Sequence record: MN013077.1 | Origin: Klebsiella phage vB_KaeM_KaOmega | Strand: one strand, 5' to 3' | Length of the DNA: 64,000 nt | Shown: piece by piece, positions 7,827 through 46,051 of the stretch | Layout of the letters: each line of letters opens with the position of its first letter | Position numbering within the stretch: position 1 is the first letter of the stretch | Program-made: the position numbers and the translations under genes | Notes under the pieces: generated by a model | What the model was told of the DNA's origin: nothing | The model's database searches: none | What the model saw: the letters and a program-made list of their open reading frames with translations, nothing else

Positions 7827-7850
7827 CATCACAATGTGAACTGATAAAAT
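7823..7850 (+). promoter_or_regulatory. sigma70-like promoter (TTGACA-N16-TAAAAT)
   Basis: TTGACA at ~7823, TAAAAT at ~7845, then GGAGGAAATATG (start 7893). Confidence 0.5.
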
Positions 7851-7892: not shown

Positions 7893-9449
7893 ATGTTCGA
7901 TAATATCATGAGTGCCGAGGAGCTTGAGCTTGCCAACGCAAATACAGAAGAGGCAGAGAAACTCCTTGAGGCTGCAAGTCTTCAACTGATGCGCTACAAG
8001 CCCTTCTACGGGGTAATGTTGGCATCAATGCCGATCACCCGTGCCACGGAGACCATCAACACGATGGCTACCAACGGGCGTGACTTGTTTTATTCCCCAG
8101 AGTTCGTTGCGGGGATGTGTGACAAGCGTAAGGCGCTGGTAAAACAGCGTATTGACCAGCAGGTCAAGGACAAGAAAAAGAACGCAGAGATGAAGTTAAT
8201 GATCGATGTGTTTTATCGTCGCAAGACTGCCCGTGAGGTGGCCTTGGTTCTGGAGCACGAATGCGATCACGTGGTTTCTGAGCACATGTACCGTGGGAAA
8301 GGATACAACTTCGCGCTGTTCAACATCGCAGCCGACCATCGTATCAACACGAACGCTGTTCTGAACCACACAACGAATAATGAAATGGGTACAGCCTGGT
8401 TCCCTCTGGGTGCCAAAACGGTGTTCGACCCAGACAAAGAGTTTGGCTTCATGAAGTGGGCATACTGTGATTTCCAGTACGCAGATATGTATGCCGAGCA
8501 GATCTATGAACTTCTCGTTAAGCAGACTCCTCCCCCTCCACCGAGCGGTGGTGGCAGCGGTGCATCGGGTAGCGGGGAAGAGGGCAAAGGTGATTCCGGT
8601 GATCAGGGGAATGGCCCGATGGGTACTGATCAACACCCAAATGCAGACGGGACCTTCAGCGAACAAGATGGGGAGGACGACCTGTCCAAAGCAATGGGTA
8701 CTGATCCGGGGGCGATGAAGCCACTCACTCAGGAACAGAAGAATTATAACGATACGGTAATGCGCCGGGCAATCGAAAACGCTGTTCAGGCAGCAGGCAA
8801 GGGAGCGCCAGCAGATGCTCGTAAGTTTGTGGAAGAAGCCGGAAAACCGAAGGTTAACTACCTGCGACTGTTACGTCGGACAATTGAGCGATTGTTCAAA
8901 GACAACGTTTCATACCGTCGTTTAAACCGCCGTAGTTACTCCCTGACGCGATCTTTGCGTCAAGCAGGGTATCTTACTTCCCGGCAGACGATCGGCCTTC
9001 CTTCGTACACTAAGGCCAAGACAATCCGTGCCCACGTGTTCTTCGACGTGTCTGGATCGTTCACCGATGATCTTTTGGGGCCAACTAAACGTGAGATCAA
9101 GGGATTGTGCAATCAATATGAGGACTTTGAGGTCACAATGGCGGCTTGGTCCACAAAGGTTGGTAACATTTGCACGTACACGAAGAAGAACCTGAAGGAG
9201 ATTGATAACTATAAGATCCAAACGACTTACGGGACGGACGTGAAGTGCGTGTTCGAATGTCTTGATGAGCTTGACAAAGAGCCGGACCAGATTGTAATCT
9301 ATACAGATGGTTACTTCTCTGATGTATCTCAGACCAAAAACTGGGCGGAGAAGTATGGCAAGAAGACTCTGTGGATCATTTTGGGCCGTCATGGGCCTGA
9401 ATGGACTCCACCGTTTGGAACTGCAATTGACTTTGACAAATACCTGTAA
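7893..9449 (+). CDS. VWA-domain protein with N-terminal putative metallopeptidase (HExxH) module (DUF2201-type partner of AAA+ ATPase)
   Basis: 518 aa. HECDH (HExxH) in LVLEHECDHVVSEH. Pro/Gly/Ser-rich linker. C-terminal VWA with MIDAS-like DVSGSFTDD. Gene pair with upstream MoxR ATPase. Confidence 0.7.
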   Translation: MFDNIMSAEELELANANTEEAEKLLEAASLQLMRYKPFYGVMLASMPITRATETINTMATNGRDLFYSPEFVAGMCDKRKALVKQRIDQQVKDKKKNAEMKLMIDVFYRRKTAREVALVLEHECDHVVSEHMYRGKGYNFALFNIAADHRINTNAVLNHTTNNEMGTAWFPLGAKTVFDPDKEFGFMKWAYCDFQYADMYAEQIYELLVKQTPPPPPSGGGSGASGSGEEGKGDSGDQGNGPMGTDQHPNADGTFSEQDGEDDLSKAMGTDPGAMKPLTQEQKNYNDTVMRRAIENAVQAAGKGAPADARKFVEEAGKPKVNYLRLLRRTIERLFKDNVSYRRLNRRSYSLTRSLRQAGYLTSRQTIGLPSYTKAKTIRAHVFFDVSGSFTDDLLGPTKREIKGLCNQYEDFEVTMAAWSTKVGNICTYTKKNLKEIDNYKIQTTYGTDVKCVFECLDELDKEPDQIVIYTDGYFSDVSQTKNWAEKYGKKTLWIILGRHGPEWTPPFGTAIDFDKYL

Positions 9450-32880: not shown

Positions 32881-33084
32881 TTATTTGCGGAAGATTTCCA
32901 CCTGTACCGGGTCGTATGCCCCTTCAGGATTGAACGGGTGTCTCCAGCACGAGAACAGGTTTTGGTCATCCTTGCTGTCCTTGATGCGTTTCCGAACCTC
33001 TTTGAGACTGGTGAAGTACCCGATGTGGACGATGTAGTCTTCTTCCAGGATAAGATACTCAAGCTCATACAGATATGCTTTCAT
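32881..33084 (-). CDS. hypothetical protein
   Basis: 67 aa. Confidence 0.45.
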   Translation of the reverse strand: MKAYLYELEYLILEEDYIVHIGYFTSLKEVRKRIKDSKDDQNLFSCWRHPFNPEGAYDPVQVEIFRK

Positions 33085-34024: not shown

Positions 34025-34265
34025 TGATGTCTAAATCGGTGATTACGTGTTGAGGGCCAGTATAGTCCTCCGCCAGTTTCTTTGCAACCCTTTTCGCTTC
34101 GTCCAAGGTTTCAAAATCCTTGATGTCGGGGTCGCCGTGGGAGTAATGCTGCTGGACATACTGCCAGAAGGGCCACCAGAAGCCTCTGTTATACTTCACC
34201 CGGTAATACTCGACCACCCGCCCGTTGGCGAAGGTCTTTACGTTCTTCTCAATCAGAATTTTCAT
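33990..34265 (-). CDS. hypothetical protein
   Basis: 91 aa. Confidence 0.5.
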   Translation of the reverse strand: MKILIEKNVKTFANGRVVEYYRVKYNRGFWWPFWQYVQQHYSHGDPDIKDFETLDEAKRVAKKLAEDYTGPQHVITDLDINGEPVNKYCGG

Positions 34266-34710: not shown

Positions 34711-34938
34711 TCAACGATTTTTGATAAATTGATAGCCCGGAACCTTCAAAAAGGCAATTTGCTTTTCCACCTGCTCCATGACGAACTTTGCCCACTCCGG
34801 ATAGACTGTTTCGAAGAAAGCCATCTCTTCCTTGTCGTACAGGAAGCTGTCACTCAGTTGGTGGACAAAATCTATCACCTCTTCAGGGCAAAATATTGCC
34901 ACAGTCCCCTCTTTTACCTCCAATTCAAGTATTTTCAT
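34711..34938 (-). CDS. hypothetical protein
   Basis: 75 aa. Confidence 0.45.
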   Translation of the reverse strand: MKILELEVKEGTVAIFCPEEVIDFVHQLSDSFLYDKEEMAFFETVYPEWAKFVMEQVEKQIAFLKVPGYQFIKNR

Positions 34939-36391: not shown

Positions 36392-36458
36392 TTACTTATC
36401 CCGTAAAAGGGATAACCGACATGACTAGTATACACGACTGAATCTGGATTGCAAGCAA

Positions 36459-36480
36459 TAAAAAACCGCCCGAAGGCGGT
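36459..36480 (-). terminator. rho-independent terminator
   Basis: Plus strand AAAAAA-CCGCC-cgaa-GGCGG-TTT, directly downstream of the stop of 36481..37668. Confidence 0.7.
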
Positions 36481-37668
36481 TTAAAGAAGGGAGGAAGTGT
36501 CCAGCAGAGTCCAGTCTCTAACGATGCCGCTCTCAATCCCCGGCAAGAGTCCGTTTGTGGCGTTCCCTGCACCGTAGAGGTTGCCGTTTTCCAAATAATA
36601 GCTCTGGTAAACGTTAGCTCTCGACATATACCAATTTCTGGACGGGTTCATGGTCGCCGATGGCATTTCTACAAAGGTCCCCTTGTAAGCGCCGTTTGTC
36701 CAAGTTGGGTCTCCGGAACTACCTACAGCATTCGATGGCGGGTTGTTCCCTGTACACCACCACTTACCATCGGCATTTAGGAACTTAGCCATGTAAGATC
36801 CAACAGCGAAAGTGGAGTCCTCTATCGAGATATTTGGGGCTGCAACAATCGCCGGGGTCGGATAGTTTGCGTTTGCCCCTATCCCCCTCCCGATGGAACC
36901 GGACGATTGGAAACCGTTTGACCAAATTTGGTGGTAATTCGGCATCGTCGCGTGCGCTCTCAATGTGAACAACGCCTGGTTTCCGCCAACAATTTTCTTG
37001 TTAAGGTTGTTCGTCAAAGAGGGTATAAAGGTCAGAGCCGTGTTGGCATTTGTTGATCCACCAAGCTGACCACCCGCACCGAATCCCCATCCACCAACCC
37101 TACCGTCACTCAACAAGACCCATGTTGTGTCTGAAACATCGAATGGAAACGCAACCTGGAGTATTTCAACGCCAACTGTTGGAGATCCCACATTTACCCA
37201 TGCGTTTTTCTGACTCAATGTGTTTCCTGAGCCACAAGCCCCGTACTGATTTGTCCCTCTCAGCTTCAGTAGTGTGCCACCATTATGCAGGAGAGCAAAC
37301 GTGAAGTTAGAAATTTGCCAGTCTTTAAGTCCGGCAGCAGAAATATCAATCTGGCTAGTGATATCTGTTGCTGTGATAAGTTGTGCGGCAAGAGATCCAA
37401 AGTAATTGTTTACTCCGACCATCTTCCACCGTTCAGTATTAGTCCTCCAGACAACCGTCCTGTAGGCGCATCTGAACTCTTTCACATCGGACCCAAGAAG
37501 GGTCCAAGTAGTGACCGCAGCACCAGTTCCGCTCGTATAGGCATCTGTTATTACGTATAAGTTACCGGATGATGTTAGCGCGGCAATTCCGTTGCCGATC
37601 ATCCCCATTTCTACAATCTTCCCGGCGGGAGGTGGGACTTTACCTCCGGACATCATCAATTCAAGCAT
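36481..37668 (-). CDS. RCC1-repeat (beta-propeller) protein
   Basis: 395 aa; CAGGAGGA SD. Repeated motifs GTNQYGACGSGNT, GGWGFGAGGQLGGST and WKMVGVNNYFGSLAAQ match the RCC1/ATS1 blade signature (G.N..GQLG). Confidence 0.5.
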   Translation of the reverse strand: MLELMMSGGKVPPPAGKIVEMGMIGNGIAALTSSGNLYVITDAYTSGTGAAVTTWTLLGSDVKEFRCAYRTVVWRTNTERWKMVGVNNYFGSLAAQLITATDITSQIDISAAGLKDWQISNFTFALLHNGGTLLKLRGTNQYGACGSGNTLSQKNAWVNVGSPTVGVEILQVAFPFDVSDTTWVLLSDGRVGGWGFGAGGQLGGSTNANTALTFIPSLTNNLNKKIVGGNQALFTLRAHATMPNYHQIWSNGFQSSGSIGRGIGANANYPTPAIVAAPNISIEDSTFAVGSYMAKFLNADGKWWCTGNNPPSNAVGSSGDPTWTNGAYKGTFVEMPSATMNPSRNWYMSRANVYQSYYLENGNLYGAGNATNGLLPGIESGIVRDWTLLDTSSLL

Positions 37669-37832
37669 AAATCCTCCTGTGAAAAGGTAATTTTATCACA
37701 CATCCCTGTGAAATTCACCTTACAGGGGTGCGATATCCGCTCCCGGGACTTCCTGAACTACCGGGCGTCCGCCGATATTGACTTCAACGTACCAGTTCTC
37801 TGTATCAACAACCGGAGAAAGAGTCTTCCCGG

Positions 37833-38342
37833 TCAGACCTTCAAATGGGCCGGAGATGAATCGGATTTGTTGATATTCACTAAGTGGCATTTATCTTCCT
37901 CGTTAATAAACAAAGACATATCTGTCTTAAAGTCGTATTCTCTACGCCAAAAGACAGCCATAGTTTCGATGATTTGCGTCCCGTACATCGTACTGATGAA
38001 CGAAATATCACCGTAGGTTAATTCCTTGCCGACAGGCAAGGCATCATAGAAGTGCCTCGGGACCGGAGACCAGAACTCAATACCCTTCCAGAAGAACTGG
38101 GCCTTTCGGTGCGTTCGCTCGTCGAAGGCATATTTATCCCAAGCATCCCTCCCAGCCATCCCGTCTCGTCCAGTCATGCCCATAGGACCAGTCGGGCCGG
38201 GGTTCTTCTGGGTTGCCCGATAGGCCGACATGTCAGAGATCTCTTCGATGCATCTATACACATCACCAAGGGAGCACTCAACCCCCCGATCTTCAAGAAC
38301 CTTATGGAGGGCCTCAAGGATATTTGGTCTCTCAACTGCCAA
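37833..38342 (-). CDS. hypothetical protein with short collagen-like G-x-y tract
   Basis: 169 aa; NPGPTGPMGMTGRDGMAGRD. Confidence 0.5.
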   Translation of the reverse strand: MAVERPNILEALHKVLEDRGVECSLGDVYRCIEEISDMSAYRATQKNPGPTGPMGMTGRDGMAGRDAWDKYAFDERTHRKAQFFWKGIEFWSPVPRHFYDALPVGKELTYGDISFISTMYGTQIIETMAVFWRREYDFKTDMSLFINEEDKCHLVNINKSDSSPAHLKV

Positions 38343-38828: not shown

Positions 38829-39035
38829 TTACGGAACCTGTGTGCAACTGGCATTGGGACTGCCTTGCATCAATCGGCAGATCATTGTCTTTTCAGATGT
38901 CTTCGTGACGATGTAATCCGGACAGGCAATGATCGTTGCACCACCACCGTGGTCATGTATGGTACACTTATTCAGGTCTTCTTCCGCATTGACCCCGAAG
39001 GCCAGAACTGCCAACAAAATAATCAACTTTTTCAT
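38829..39035 (-). CDS. secreted small Cys-containing protein
   Basis: Signal peptide MKKLIILLAVLAFGVNA|EEDL; 4 Cys in the mature part. Confidence 0.5.
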   Translation of the reverse strand: MKKLIILLAVLAFGVNAEEDLNKCTIHDHGGGATIIACPDYIVTKTSEKTMICRLMQGSPNASCTQVP

Positions 39036-39084: not shown

Positions 39085-39387
39085 CTACTGAGAAGATTGC
39101 TGCTGCGATGTACGGTCCAACCATTCATCATACTCCTTCTGCAAACCCTCAAGGGTTGAGTTCATGATGAGAGGATTGCCCTCCACCGGCTCAATAACAT
39201 ACAGGGCACCCGACACGTTGTCAACCTCTGACATCATCTTTTTGATGTCTTCTCGGTCAAAAACTTCCCGAGGCATCCCCGGAAAGGCTGTCAGAATCAT
39301 GCTCTTGCAGTTTCTGGCAAAGCCGCAGTTGGAGGGTTGCCCACCGACAACCGCCATGTATGCAACACTTCCGAAACGTGAACGCAT
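39085..39387 (-). CDS. hypothetical protein
   Basis: 100 aa. Confidence 0.45.
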   Translation of the reverse strand: MRSRFGSVAYMAVVGGQPSNCGFARNCKSMILTAFPGMPREVFDREDIKKMMSEVDNVSGALYVIEPVEGNPLIMNSTLEGLQKEYDEWLDRTSQQQSSQ

Positions 39388-39647
39388 CAGTTTAAACTCC
39401 CAAATGAGCCTTCTGCAACTACGGAAAGGCTTTTGTAGTCAACAACTTGGTAGTCGCCATAGGTGATCCCGGAGTTGTGGATCATTTCCTTAGCGCTATC
39501 CACAGACAGAGCCACACCCAAGAAGTCTTTCCATCCGCCAACGGCGTGGTGGTGACTGTTTGCGAATACCAGAAGCATCCGGCCCGGGGTGTATCCCGCT
39601 GCGGCAGTCAGTGCTTCAATTGTAGGTTCTTTGTTCATTTCCAGCAT
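39387..39647 (-). CDS. hypothetical protein
   Basis: 86 aa. Confidence 0.45.
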   Translation of the reverse strand: MLEMNKEPTIEALTAAAGYTPGRMLLVFANSHHHAVGGWKDFLGVALSVDSAKEMIHNSGITYGDYQVVDYKSLSVVAEGSFGSLN

Positions 39648-45649: not shown

Positions 45650-46051
45650 TTAGAGACATTTTACCCCGTAAACAATTAGCGCGATCACCATACCACTTGT
45701 GTAGATTGCACCGAAGACATGTTGACCGTAAGTGAACGTTTTGGTCTTGCCTGCATTGGCGATGCCCAAAATGTATCCAACAATGATCGATGCCCAGTGA
45801 ACAATCAGGATGCCGAGGCTCAGTGCGCCAGGAGACCAAATGTACAGCGAGTAAGAAAGGTACGCTGCAAAGATACCCATCAAGGTCTTGAAGAGAAGAG
45901 ACCCGGCACCCAGCGTCCGCTGTTCGAACTTCAATGCTTCCGGCTTAATGCTTTCTAAGAAGAGCATCAGGCCCAAGCTGATTACATTCAGGCTCGCGCC
46001 CAAGCAGAAGATTACCATAAGAACGATGTACTGCCAAGTTGGTGCCAACAT
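45650..46051 (-). CDS. integral membrane protein (about 4 TM)
   Basis: 133 aa, highly hydrophobic. Confidence 0.5.
   Translation of the reverse strand: MLAPTWQYIVLMVIFCLGASLNVISLGLMLFLESIKPEALKFEQRTLGAGSLLFKTLMGIFAAYLSYSLYIWSPGALSLGILIVHWASIIVGYILGIANAGKTKTFTYGQHVFGAIYTSGMVIALIVYGVKCL

Follow-up and report, generated by a model that had tools for sequence, protein, structure and literature searches.

An RCC1-like propeller protein on an insertion cassette of Klebsiella phage vB_KaeM_KaOmega: a candidate accessory virion protein with a conserved N-terminal peptide

Klebsiella phage vB_KaeM_KaOmega (record MN013077.1) encodes an RCC1-like beta-propeller among small non-structural genes, and the locus raises the question of whether such a protein acts inside the host cell early in infection or travels with the phage particle. 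The stretch of 64,000 nucleotides analyzed here is referred to as the window. A preliminary description of the gene had read the location as that of an early-region operon and had argued from it for a host-interaction role rather than a fibre. The evidence presented below leads us to a different account, in which the propeller is a late-expressed accessory virion protein, its N-terminal peptide docking at the tail-fibre or baseplate region of the particle and its loops binding a host envelope structure. We place the probability of this account at about 0.5. That the propeller is a virion protein at all, we regard as fairly probable.

The gene in question is the following.

36481..37668, minus strand: propeller open reading frame (ORF) with an ATG start, 395 aa, a single-domain seven-bladed RCC1-like beta-propeller of PHROG 4219.

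The assignment as an RCC1 beta-propeller, already proposed in the preliminary description, was borne out by sequence profiles, a structural model and structure searches alike. In hidden Markov model (HMM) searches the protein matched PHROG 4219 at 1.1e-34, and in Pfam it matched PF25390 (RCC1-like domain) at 6e-10 and PF00415 (RCC1 repeat) at 1.5e-3, both under the Pfam gathering scores (39.4 bits vs a cut-off of 150, and 19.5 vs 21.7, respectively). A family profile of ten members matched HERC2, UVR8, RPGR and RCC1 chains among PDB sequences at 6e-12 to 1e-9, and 15,756 RCC1-repeat proteins in a representative library of 1.8 billion proteins. All three RCC1-type strings quoted earlier are present, VGVNNYFGSLAAQ at residues 84-96, GTNQYGACGSGNT at 138-150 and GWGFGAGGQLGGS at 193-205. 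The repeat signature (hydrophobic-x-G-x-N-x-x-G-Q-L-G) is seen in blades 3 (GTNQYGACGSGNT), 4 (GFGAGGQLGGS) and 5 (GFQSSGSIGRGIG), and the other blades are degenerate. The AlphaFold2 model contained 7 sets of 4 strands, with a predicted template-modelling score (pTM) of 0.81 and a mean predicted local distance difference test score (pLDDT) of 75.5, and was weakest at residues 1-11 (pLDDT <50), 255-268 and 308-329. When this model was searched against the PDB with Foldseek, the top match was UVR8 (E 1.3e-17, template-modelling score 0.72, ~398 columns); other matches were RPGR, HERC1/2 and RCC1, with RCC1, HERC2 and RPGR at 1e-12 to 1e-14, and all PDB matches listed were RCC1-like propellers. 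The likeness to RCC1 is far beyond chance, and at the level of the fold the protein belongs to the RCC1/BLIP-II superfamily (IPR009091; PF00415, PF13540, PF25390). Both the HMM search and the structure prediction gave an RCC1-like propeller, and neither reassigned the repeats to a tail-fibre beta-helix. A fibre or tailspike proper was likewise rejected, the model being a closed globular propeller without beta-helix or coiled coil.

The positions conserved in the family are glycine, asparagine, tryptophan, tyrosine and leucine residues of the propeller frame, among which no catalytic-looking or polar residue set was found. We do not class the protein as an RCC1-type guanine-nucleotide exchange factor and consider such a role improbable, the alignment to RCC1 being at 13-18% identity; enterobacterial hosts are not known to have Ran, nor is any other host partner known. 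Searches of NCBIfam and PADLOC with the propeller protein gave no match. Its composition is distinctive, with 11.4% charged residues compared to 27 ± 5% in the 34 other ORFs of the window, and 47.8% G/S/T/N/A compared to 27.9 ± 4.2%. Isoelectric points (pI) in the family are 5.1-8.8, net charge is near zero, and the protein is ~40 kDa. A DNA-condensing protein was hence rejected, since a near-neutral and charge-poor protein disfavors such a role. The composition would rather be of the kind found in fibre and other external beta-rich phage proteins, and the same low-charge bias is present in two relatives discussed below, CR9_033 and the propeller of PVP-SE1 gp40. Genes of this kind had been described as uncommon in phages and usually unannotated, which did not hold: PHROG 4219 exists as a family, a related query returned homologues in 141 phage records (many of them named 'tail protein' or 'Ig domain-containing protein'), and the annotation names in use for phage RCC1-like genes also include 'regulator of chromosome condensation' and 'DNA condensation protein'.

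The observations that bear most directly on the question come from purified particles of other phages. In gradient-purified particles of Escherichia phage W70, electrospray ionization tandem mass spectrometry identified 28 proteins, 25 of which came from the structural module W70_106-137 (PMC11370258). The remaining three were W70_237, W70_238 and W70_239 (RCC1, phrog_4219, 40-43 kDa), with 233, 196, and 141 spectra, respectively, within the range of baseplate proteins (PMC11370258). These three proteins constitute the tandem array matched in our searches, bear the MLEM motif and are encoded ~100 genes from the structural module. In phAPEC6, gp003, gp005, gp007 and gp009 of the eleven RCC1-like copies were detected in virions (PMC7247149), and in GAP32 the single copy gp001 was detected (PMC5259590). 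Across its full length, W70_237 shares 36% identity with Asteriusvirus proteins (phAPEC6, PBECO4). Because family members are thus found in purified virions, a late, particle-attached module is favored over an early intracellular protein. The latter would bind a host protein and inhibit or redirect it, much as BLIP-II or an anti-defence protein would, and would never enter the particle. RCC1-like propellers are generic protein-binding platforms and would suit such a task, but members of the family occur in purified virions of three phage lineages, the low charge and fibre-like composition are unlike those of the other ORFs of the region, and PADLOC and NCBIfam offered no match; we consider an early cytoplasmic role quite unlikely. 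Very improbable is the alternative that the protein is an abundant non-structural contaminant that co-purifies, or the product of a decaying passenger gene, with no role in the particle. The phAPEC6 homologues did give just 1-4 unique peptides, and PVP-SE1 holds a truncated remnant of such a gene, but W70_237-239 were the only ones of the 28 detected proteins to be encoded elsewhere than in the structural module (141-233 spectra each), the detections in the three lineages were independent, and a ratio of nonsynonymous to synonymous substitution rates (dN/dS) of 0.05-0.09 shows that the window gene is under selection.

If the propeller is carried by the particle, its N-terminus is the candidate for the attachment site.

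37618..37668, minus strand: conserved N-terminal peptide, codons 1-17 (MLELMMSGGKVPPPAGK), the proposed docking handle.

Full-length relatives fell into about 20 clusters (50% identity) of 374-399 aa, and every one of them opens with M-[LIF]-E-[LM]-[ML]-x-x-G and continues with a stretch that contains proline. In the branch of the window protein the peptide reads MLELMMSGGKxPxPxGxI, with K-x-P-x-P as the proline stretch. M1 and E3 were invariant in 32/32 aligned sequences, and the first eight residues formed the most conserved 8-mer (0.74 vs a family mean of 0.49), above the blade motifs. Synonymous differences are seen between paralogues, so the constraint acts on the protein, and residues 1-11 are unstructured in the AlphaFold2 model. 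No other ORF of the window starts with the motif, bar one chance internal match. Related N-terminal motifs are found on CR9 gp33, PVP-SE1 gp40, CB7_37 and the array of the Salmonella jumbo phage Munch. This array comprises at least 11 tandem RCC1-like genes, all starting MIPFARILxYGN..P.P, together with two non-RCC1 proteins (L008 7422-8225 and 11962-12663) that start MIPF(T/S)K(M/I)LTYGN; these are Munch_544, with a Gly_rich_2 domain, and Munch_540, with no Pfam hit. The presence of the tag on non-RCC1 proteins indicates that it is a portable, separable module. A short, flexible and conserved tag on differing C-terminal domains is what one would expect of a common docking or targeting signal.

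Such a signal might also direct a protein to the capsid interior. The T4 internal-protein locus combines a conserved N-terminal tag on divergent proteins with variable arrays away from structural genes, and the tag and variable array described here share that architecture. The peptide would then target the protein to the capsid, as the corresponding sequences of T4 IPI-III and Alt do, and the propeller would be packed with the DNA and either organize it in the head or act in the next host after ejection. The name 'condensation' goes back to a cell-cycle phenotype in eukaryotes rather than to an activity, a pI of 5.1-8.8 and 11% charged residues fit DNA binding poorly, and a rigid propeller of ~5 nm would need unfolding to cross the tail tube. 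After the tag, the window protein has I18-V19-E20 and its homologues IAK or IKK, so that no protease motif is conserved; a T4-type internal protein would have a conserved prohead-protease site (L/I-x-E) at the end of its tag and a small basic mature form, with which the pI and the size of ~40 kDa do not agree either. Homologues are moreover fused to Ig-like (immunoglobulin-like) domains or to a T7 tail-fibre N-terminus and are encoded beside tail-fibre genes, and the Gly_rich_2 protein carries the same tag. Virion mass spectrometry is silent on position within the particle, and the authors of the phAPEC6 study proposed an inner-body role for the RCC1-like proteins (PMC7247149). The 'DNA condensation protein' and inner-body labels in the jumbo-phage papers rest on the domain name only (PMC7247149, PMC5259590). 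Overall, an internal head or ejected protein seems unlikely to us.

Relatives within tail modules would rather suggest an external position. When viral models were searched with Foldseek, the matches included, besides jumbo-phage proteins, gp40 of Salmonella phage PVP-SE1 (604 aa), a 388-aa 'DNA condensation protein' of CR9 and a protein of Pseudomonas phage PollyC whose RCC1-like propeller is joined to an N-terminus of the T7 tail-fibre type. The CR9 match appears to be CR9_033 (gp33), which has the same length; its gene closes the structural module and comes immediately after that for tail fiber protein 2. CR9_033 matched phrog_4219 at 4.6e-85 and phrog_11922 'tail protein' at 8.8e-70, and its start MFPIPALTLTGGKKLPLPPGIVK resembles LELMMSGGKVPPPAGKIV of the window protein. 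The PVP-SE1 gp40 gene adjoins a tail-fibre gene, lying downstream of it. A table in the W70 paper lists gp40 (Ig-like domain) among the virion proteins of related phages identified by mass spectrometry and pairs it with rV5 gp28, a 'putative tail fibre protein' (PMC11370258). Aligned with hhalign, the window family and a profile of CR9_033 plus the N-terminal region of gp40 gave a probability of 97.1% and an E of 5e-11 over 313 colinear columns from the GGK motif; pairwise BLASTP of the window protein against the tail-module relatives was weak (E 0.002-0.003). Colinearity with CR9 gp33 and PVP-SE1 gp40/rV5 gp28 extends from GGKxxPxP to the last blade, CB7_37/W70_106 being remoter. CB7_37, a structural protein confirmed by tandem mass spectrometry that adjoins the CB7 tail fibre, starts MIPFAIIGFVGGVTPVPYAIKK...ALMTNGDLYVTGS; it was rejected as a full-length homologue because the match is weak and covers ~78 N-terminal residues (23% probability). 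Unlike the window gene, which is not downstream of a tail-fibre gene and sits among small non-structural ORFs, the tail-module propellers directly follow a tail-fibre gene; their N-terminus is M(F/Y/I)P(I/F)P, and gp40 has C-terminal Ig-like domains. Given its location outside the structural module, the window protein is a paralogue of the tail-module proteins rather than their orthologue. The colinear homology to tail-module virion proteins also speaks against an early cytoplasmic role. With homologues in virions of W70, phAPEC6, GAP32 and PVP-SE1, the non-virion role previously drawn from the gene's location is not supported. The absence of beta-helix and coiled coil upholds the view that the protein is not itself a fibre; it is plausible that it binds a host structure, but from the particle's exterior.

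How the gene came to lie among small non-structural genes can be read from related genomes.

36484..37716, minus strand: insertion cassette relative to phiTE and PcCB7V, comprising a promoter-like element, a Shine-Dalgarno sequence and the ORF.

The cassette sits between the stop codon of the phiTE_118 homologue and a pre-existing terminator. In phiTE, CB7 and PcCB7V, which have no such gene, the terminator stands directly 3' of the stop codon of the phiTE_118 homologue. The indel is clean at base level: phiTE reads TAAG followed by TAAGCCGCC, and the window reads TAAG followed by GTGAATTTCACAGGG, the ORF and then TAAACCGCC, the junctions being TAAG on one side and TAA(A/G)CCGCC on the other. 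This delimits the cassette to ~36484-37716 (~1.2 kb). Its GC content of 0.496 vs 0.500 for the window gives no foreign mark. Copy number varies from 1 in the window and 1 in POP15 to 2 in tandem in F1M1E, 3 in W70 and 4 in LTH01; no propeller paralogue was found elsewhere in the window. The F1M1E flanks are 86-91% identical to the window, but the protein of the first copy is only 56% identical and that of the second 31%. The nearest homologues, from metagenome assemblies, are 88% and 82% identical and occupy the same position. Against these two, gene-wide dN/dS was 0.045 and 0.093, respectively, from which we conclude that the gene is functional and under purifying selection; gene-wide positive selection is ruled out by the same values. 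The synonymous divergence (dS) of 1.3-1.7 is saturated and lies above that of most flanking genes, pointing to allele replacement by recombination in a mosaic region. Genes that are sporadic, copy-variable and fast-swapping are typical of an arms race, which counts in favor of the early cytoplasmic alternative. Strict synteny of the W70 array with the window locus was not found, the two having one shared neighbour, on the other side, and a degenerate-pattern scan of viral contigs with the family alignment found no relatives. The remnant in PVP-SE1 is gene 179 (L005 4001-4303), encoding gp179 of 100 aa; over residues 1-88 it shares 97% identity with the 387-aa protein P0021, nothing more of the gene is left, and ~2.2 kb without annotated gene follow 3' of it.

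The timing of expression was assessed from the signals around the cassette, which are as follows.

37673..37678, minus strand: Shine-Dalgarno sequence, reading AGGAGG, at 4 nt upstream from the ATG; also conserved in both POP15 and F1M1E.
37689..37710, minus strand: upstream element CACAGGGATGTGTGATAAAATT, identical in POP15 and F1M1E, unique in the window.
37690-37698, minus strand: extended -10-like motif TGATAAAAT, within CACAGGGATGTGTGATAAAATT, ending 21 nt before the ATG.
36463..36482, minus strand: intrinsic terminator overlapping the TAA stop, AAACCGCC-UUCG-GGCGGUUU then U6.
36427..36454, minus strand: sigma-70-like promoter TTGCAA-N16-TATACT with TG, directly after the terminator and outside the cassette.

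The dedicated Shine-Dalgarno sequence and terminator noted earlier for this gene are thus in place. The terminator (36482..36463, minus strand) has an 8-bp stem and a UUCG loop (-12.7 kcal/mol, z = -2.6), is annotated at the equivalent site in the phiTE record and is kept 3' of the last RCC1-like gene in POP15, F1M1E, LTH01 and W70. Upstream of the gene, TGATAAAAT matches motifs before CR9 structural genes in sequence and spacing. In the first 50 kb of CR9, the motif TGNTAAAAT occurs in 9 copies vs 1.19 expected, a number reached in 0/100 shuffles, and 7/9 copies lie on the coding strand of the structural module. Four of them are located 19-34 nt upstream of the genes for the head protease, Neck1, a virion protein and a baseplate wedge, and the W70 homologues of these four proteins are virion components. 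Based on this resemblance, the cassette would bring its own putative late-type promoter. Certrevirus early promoters differ, with the form AAAA-N4-TGTTGAC-N17-TATAAT (PMC7344957). The match of TGATAAAAT to motifs before structural genes is a further point against an early cytoplasmic protein, for which it can be said that the CB7 paper regards the small-ORF region as early, with sigma-70-like promoters, and that a sigma-70-like promoter precedes the W70/LTH01 array. A second copy of TGATAAAAT lies at 7842-7850 (plus strand), 42 nt before ORF 7893..9449 (plus strand), which encodes a 518-aa HNH endonuclease (phrog_1314); should TGATAAAAT indeed act as a late promoter, late expression would be expected of this homing-endonuclease-like gene too. 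The sigma-70-like promoter 36427..36454 is conserved in phiTE, POP15 and F1M1E, and its place just past the terminator means that the cassette marks the end of its transcription unit. A second TTGCAA/TATACT site, with a spacer of 17 nt, is found at 34059-34087 (minus strand), and the two sites are probably the unit promoters of the region. Promoter- and terminator-like hits at 39196-39286 were not used as the 5' operon limit because they are inside ORF 39085..39387.

Taken together, the account of a late accessory virion protein would proceed in four steps. First, a self-contained cassette stands at the 3' end of the small-gene string, before the existing terminator. Second, the gene would be transcribed late from TGATAAAAT, in step with the structural genes, as motif identity and spacing suggest. 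Third, the protein would enter the virion through its flexible N-terminal peptide, most likely at a tail-fibre or baseplate site, as conservation and the homologues suggest; the peptide would be a portable handle common to tail-module propellers and, in jumbo phages, to non-RCC1 proteins. Fourth, the rigid, glycine-framed and monomer-sized propeller would present poorly conserved loops, mainly of blades 4-7, to a host envelope structure, with copy number (0-4) and allele identity varying among otherwise near-identical phages. The least conserved stretches of the family are indeed loops, at 161-168, 217-224, 238-245, 277-284, 308-324 and 338-345.

Several points weigh against this account. The mass spectrometric evidence comes from homologues in other phages, and the W70 paralogues are 26-31% identical to the window protein, being linked to it through F1M1E_16 at 44%; the insertion point of the W70 array also differs from the window locus. 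The W70 and LTH01 arrays are preceded by a sigma-70-like TTGGAC-N18-TATAAT, not by TGNTAAAAT, and the late-type promoter reading may for this reason fail family-wide. The window gene itself runs in the same direction as sigma-70-like early promoters and may be co-transcribed from them. TGNTAAAAT is simply a variant of the extended -10, its late status derives from enrichment before the structural genes of one related phage, and its 4 copies in the 64-kb window vs 2.2 expected are not significant by genome-wide count. The variable loops did not cluster significantly on one face of the propeller (means 0.47 vs 0.43, p = 0.17) when loops were partitioned by beta-meander topology, not model coordinates. 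The inner-body suggestion for phAPEC6 points the other way as well, and we know of no ligand for any family member.

Comparison with known systems helps to place the protein. W70_237-239 and their orthologues in LTH01, UPEC06 and A5-4 are, like the window protein, single-domain RCC1-like propellers of ~377-399 aa in PHROG 4219. The W70 proteins (Septuagintavirus, Vequintavirinae) have the same type of N-terminal peptide, MLEM(M/L)xLG/GGK, and their locus is again among small non-structural genes, with the same terminator type and a variable copy number. In contrast to the window, the W70/LTH01-type locus has three or four tandem copies, another insertion point and another promoter-like sequence. 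The jumbo-phage arrays (phAPEC6, 121Q, PBECO4, Munch; Rak2-like, Asteriusvirus) consist of tandem proteins of ~375-400 aa with the tag MIPFARILxYGNxxPxP and, unlike the window, comprise six to thirteen copies per genome and also hold tagged non-RCC1 proteins. Their likeness to the window protein is at the level of the fold (Foldseek E 1e-19 to 1e-15, 12-24% identity), and by sequence they are linked to it only through paralogues such as W70_237. Eukaryotic RCC1, UVR8, the RCC1-like domains of HERC2, RPGR, and likewise BLIP-II, share the seven-bladed fold, repeats of 50-60 residues and glycine-rich turns, and serve as protein-binding platforms. The window protein is 13-20% identical to them, has the extra conserved N-terminal peptide and, by inspection, is missing the signal peptide of BLIP-II. 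In T2/S16-type gp38 tip adhesins, the adenovirus fibre tail and the T4 capsid-targeting sequence, a small protein or peptide attaches a module to a constant site on the particle. These are analogies only, as gp38, adenovirus fibre and the T4 internal proteins have no sequence or fold relation to the window protein.

The surroundings of the gene agree with its description as lying among small non-structural genes. By DNA similarity the window is Certrevirus-like, within the Vequintavirinae (rV5-like myophages). Among deposited genomes, that of Enterobacter phage vB_ExiM_F1M1E comes nearest over window 25-49 kb (91% identity across 73% of that part), and the next nearest are Cronobacter phages CR8, CR3 and CR9 and Pectobacterium phages. 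The large ORFs encode ribonucleotide reductase subunits, a tRNA (transfer RNA) nucleotidyltransferase, a nucleotidyltransferase, a ClpP-like protease, a DNA polymerase exonuclease subunit, an ATPase and an HNH endonuclease, and the remainder are many small ORFs. No structural genes were found among the large ORFs scanned in the 64-kb window, and a search for tRNA genes in it found none. The neighbours of the propeller gene are small ORFs, ribonucleotide reductase, nucleotidyltransferases and the DNA polymerase exonuclease subunit. A 'virion structural protein' annotated in the CR8 counterpart region was rejected as a relative, being an unrelated gene that adjoins the nucleotidyltransferase.

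Some of these neighbours merit a description of their own. Two genes upstream of the propeller gene, ORF 37833..38342 (minus strand) encodes a 169-aa homologue of phiTE_119 with a short collagen-like run, GPTGPMGMTGRDGMAGRD; the PcCB7V homologue is annotated 'tail fiber protein', the ORF overlaps ORF 37720..37890 by 58 nt, as in phiTE, and in the close relative L013 a 60-aa gene takes its place. The 68-aa ORF 38829..39035 (minus strand), part of the same gene string, begins like a signal peptide (MKKLIILLAVLAFGVNA), has four cysteines in its mature portion and may encode a small secreted or periplasmic protein. The products of the small genes 39387..39647, 34723..34938 and 32881..33084 (all minus strand) are 49%, 34%, and 48% identical to their L013 counterparts, respectively, and the neighbours of these genes are 96-99% identical; as judged from such comparisons, the region is mosaic, and several further alleles in it have been swapped. 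The 133-aa product of ORF 45650..46051 (minus strand), with 7.5% charged residues the sole one in the window below the propeller protein in charge, is probably a membrane protein, and the CR8 counterpart region bears 'membrane protein' annotations.

The family itself was already known, as PHROG 4219, and no functional assay of any RCC1-like phage protein turned up in the literature searched. As far as could be found there, the shared N-terminal peptide and its occurrence on non-RCC1 proteins, the link of the 'early-region' arrays to tail-module propellers and the late-type motif on the cassette are new. Taken by itself, the window yields chiefly a correction to the annotation. Members of the family occur widely among large enterobacterial myophages, have repeatedly been found in virions and often come in many copies (up to 13 in 121Q), and the name 'DNA condensation protein' given to them is misleading. 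The separable N-terminal peptide, the clean cassette with its late-type motif and the tail-fibre-adjacent relatives offer experimental handles. A broader and more tentative idea, which we hold to be possible though doubtful, is that tagged RCC1-like, glycine-rich and other proteins form a plug-in repertoire of monomeric modules that dock via a universal peptide at one conserved site on the particle. If so, surface specificities would be changed or multiplied by gain, loss and swap of 1.2-kb cassettes while the fibre genes stay unaltered, which would constitute an undescribed mode of host-range or adhesion diversification common to Vequintavirinae and Rak2-like jumbo phages. If the propellers are surface adhesins, they would matter for host-range prediction and for the engineering of therapeutic rV5-like phages.

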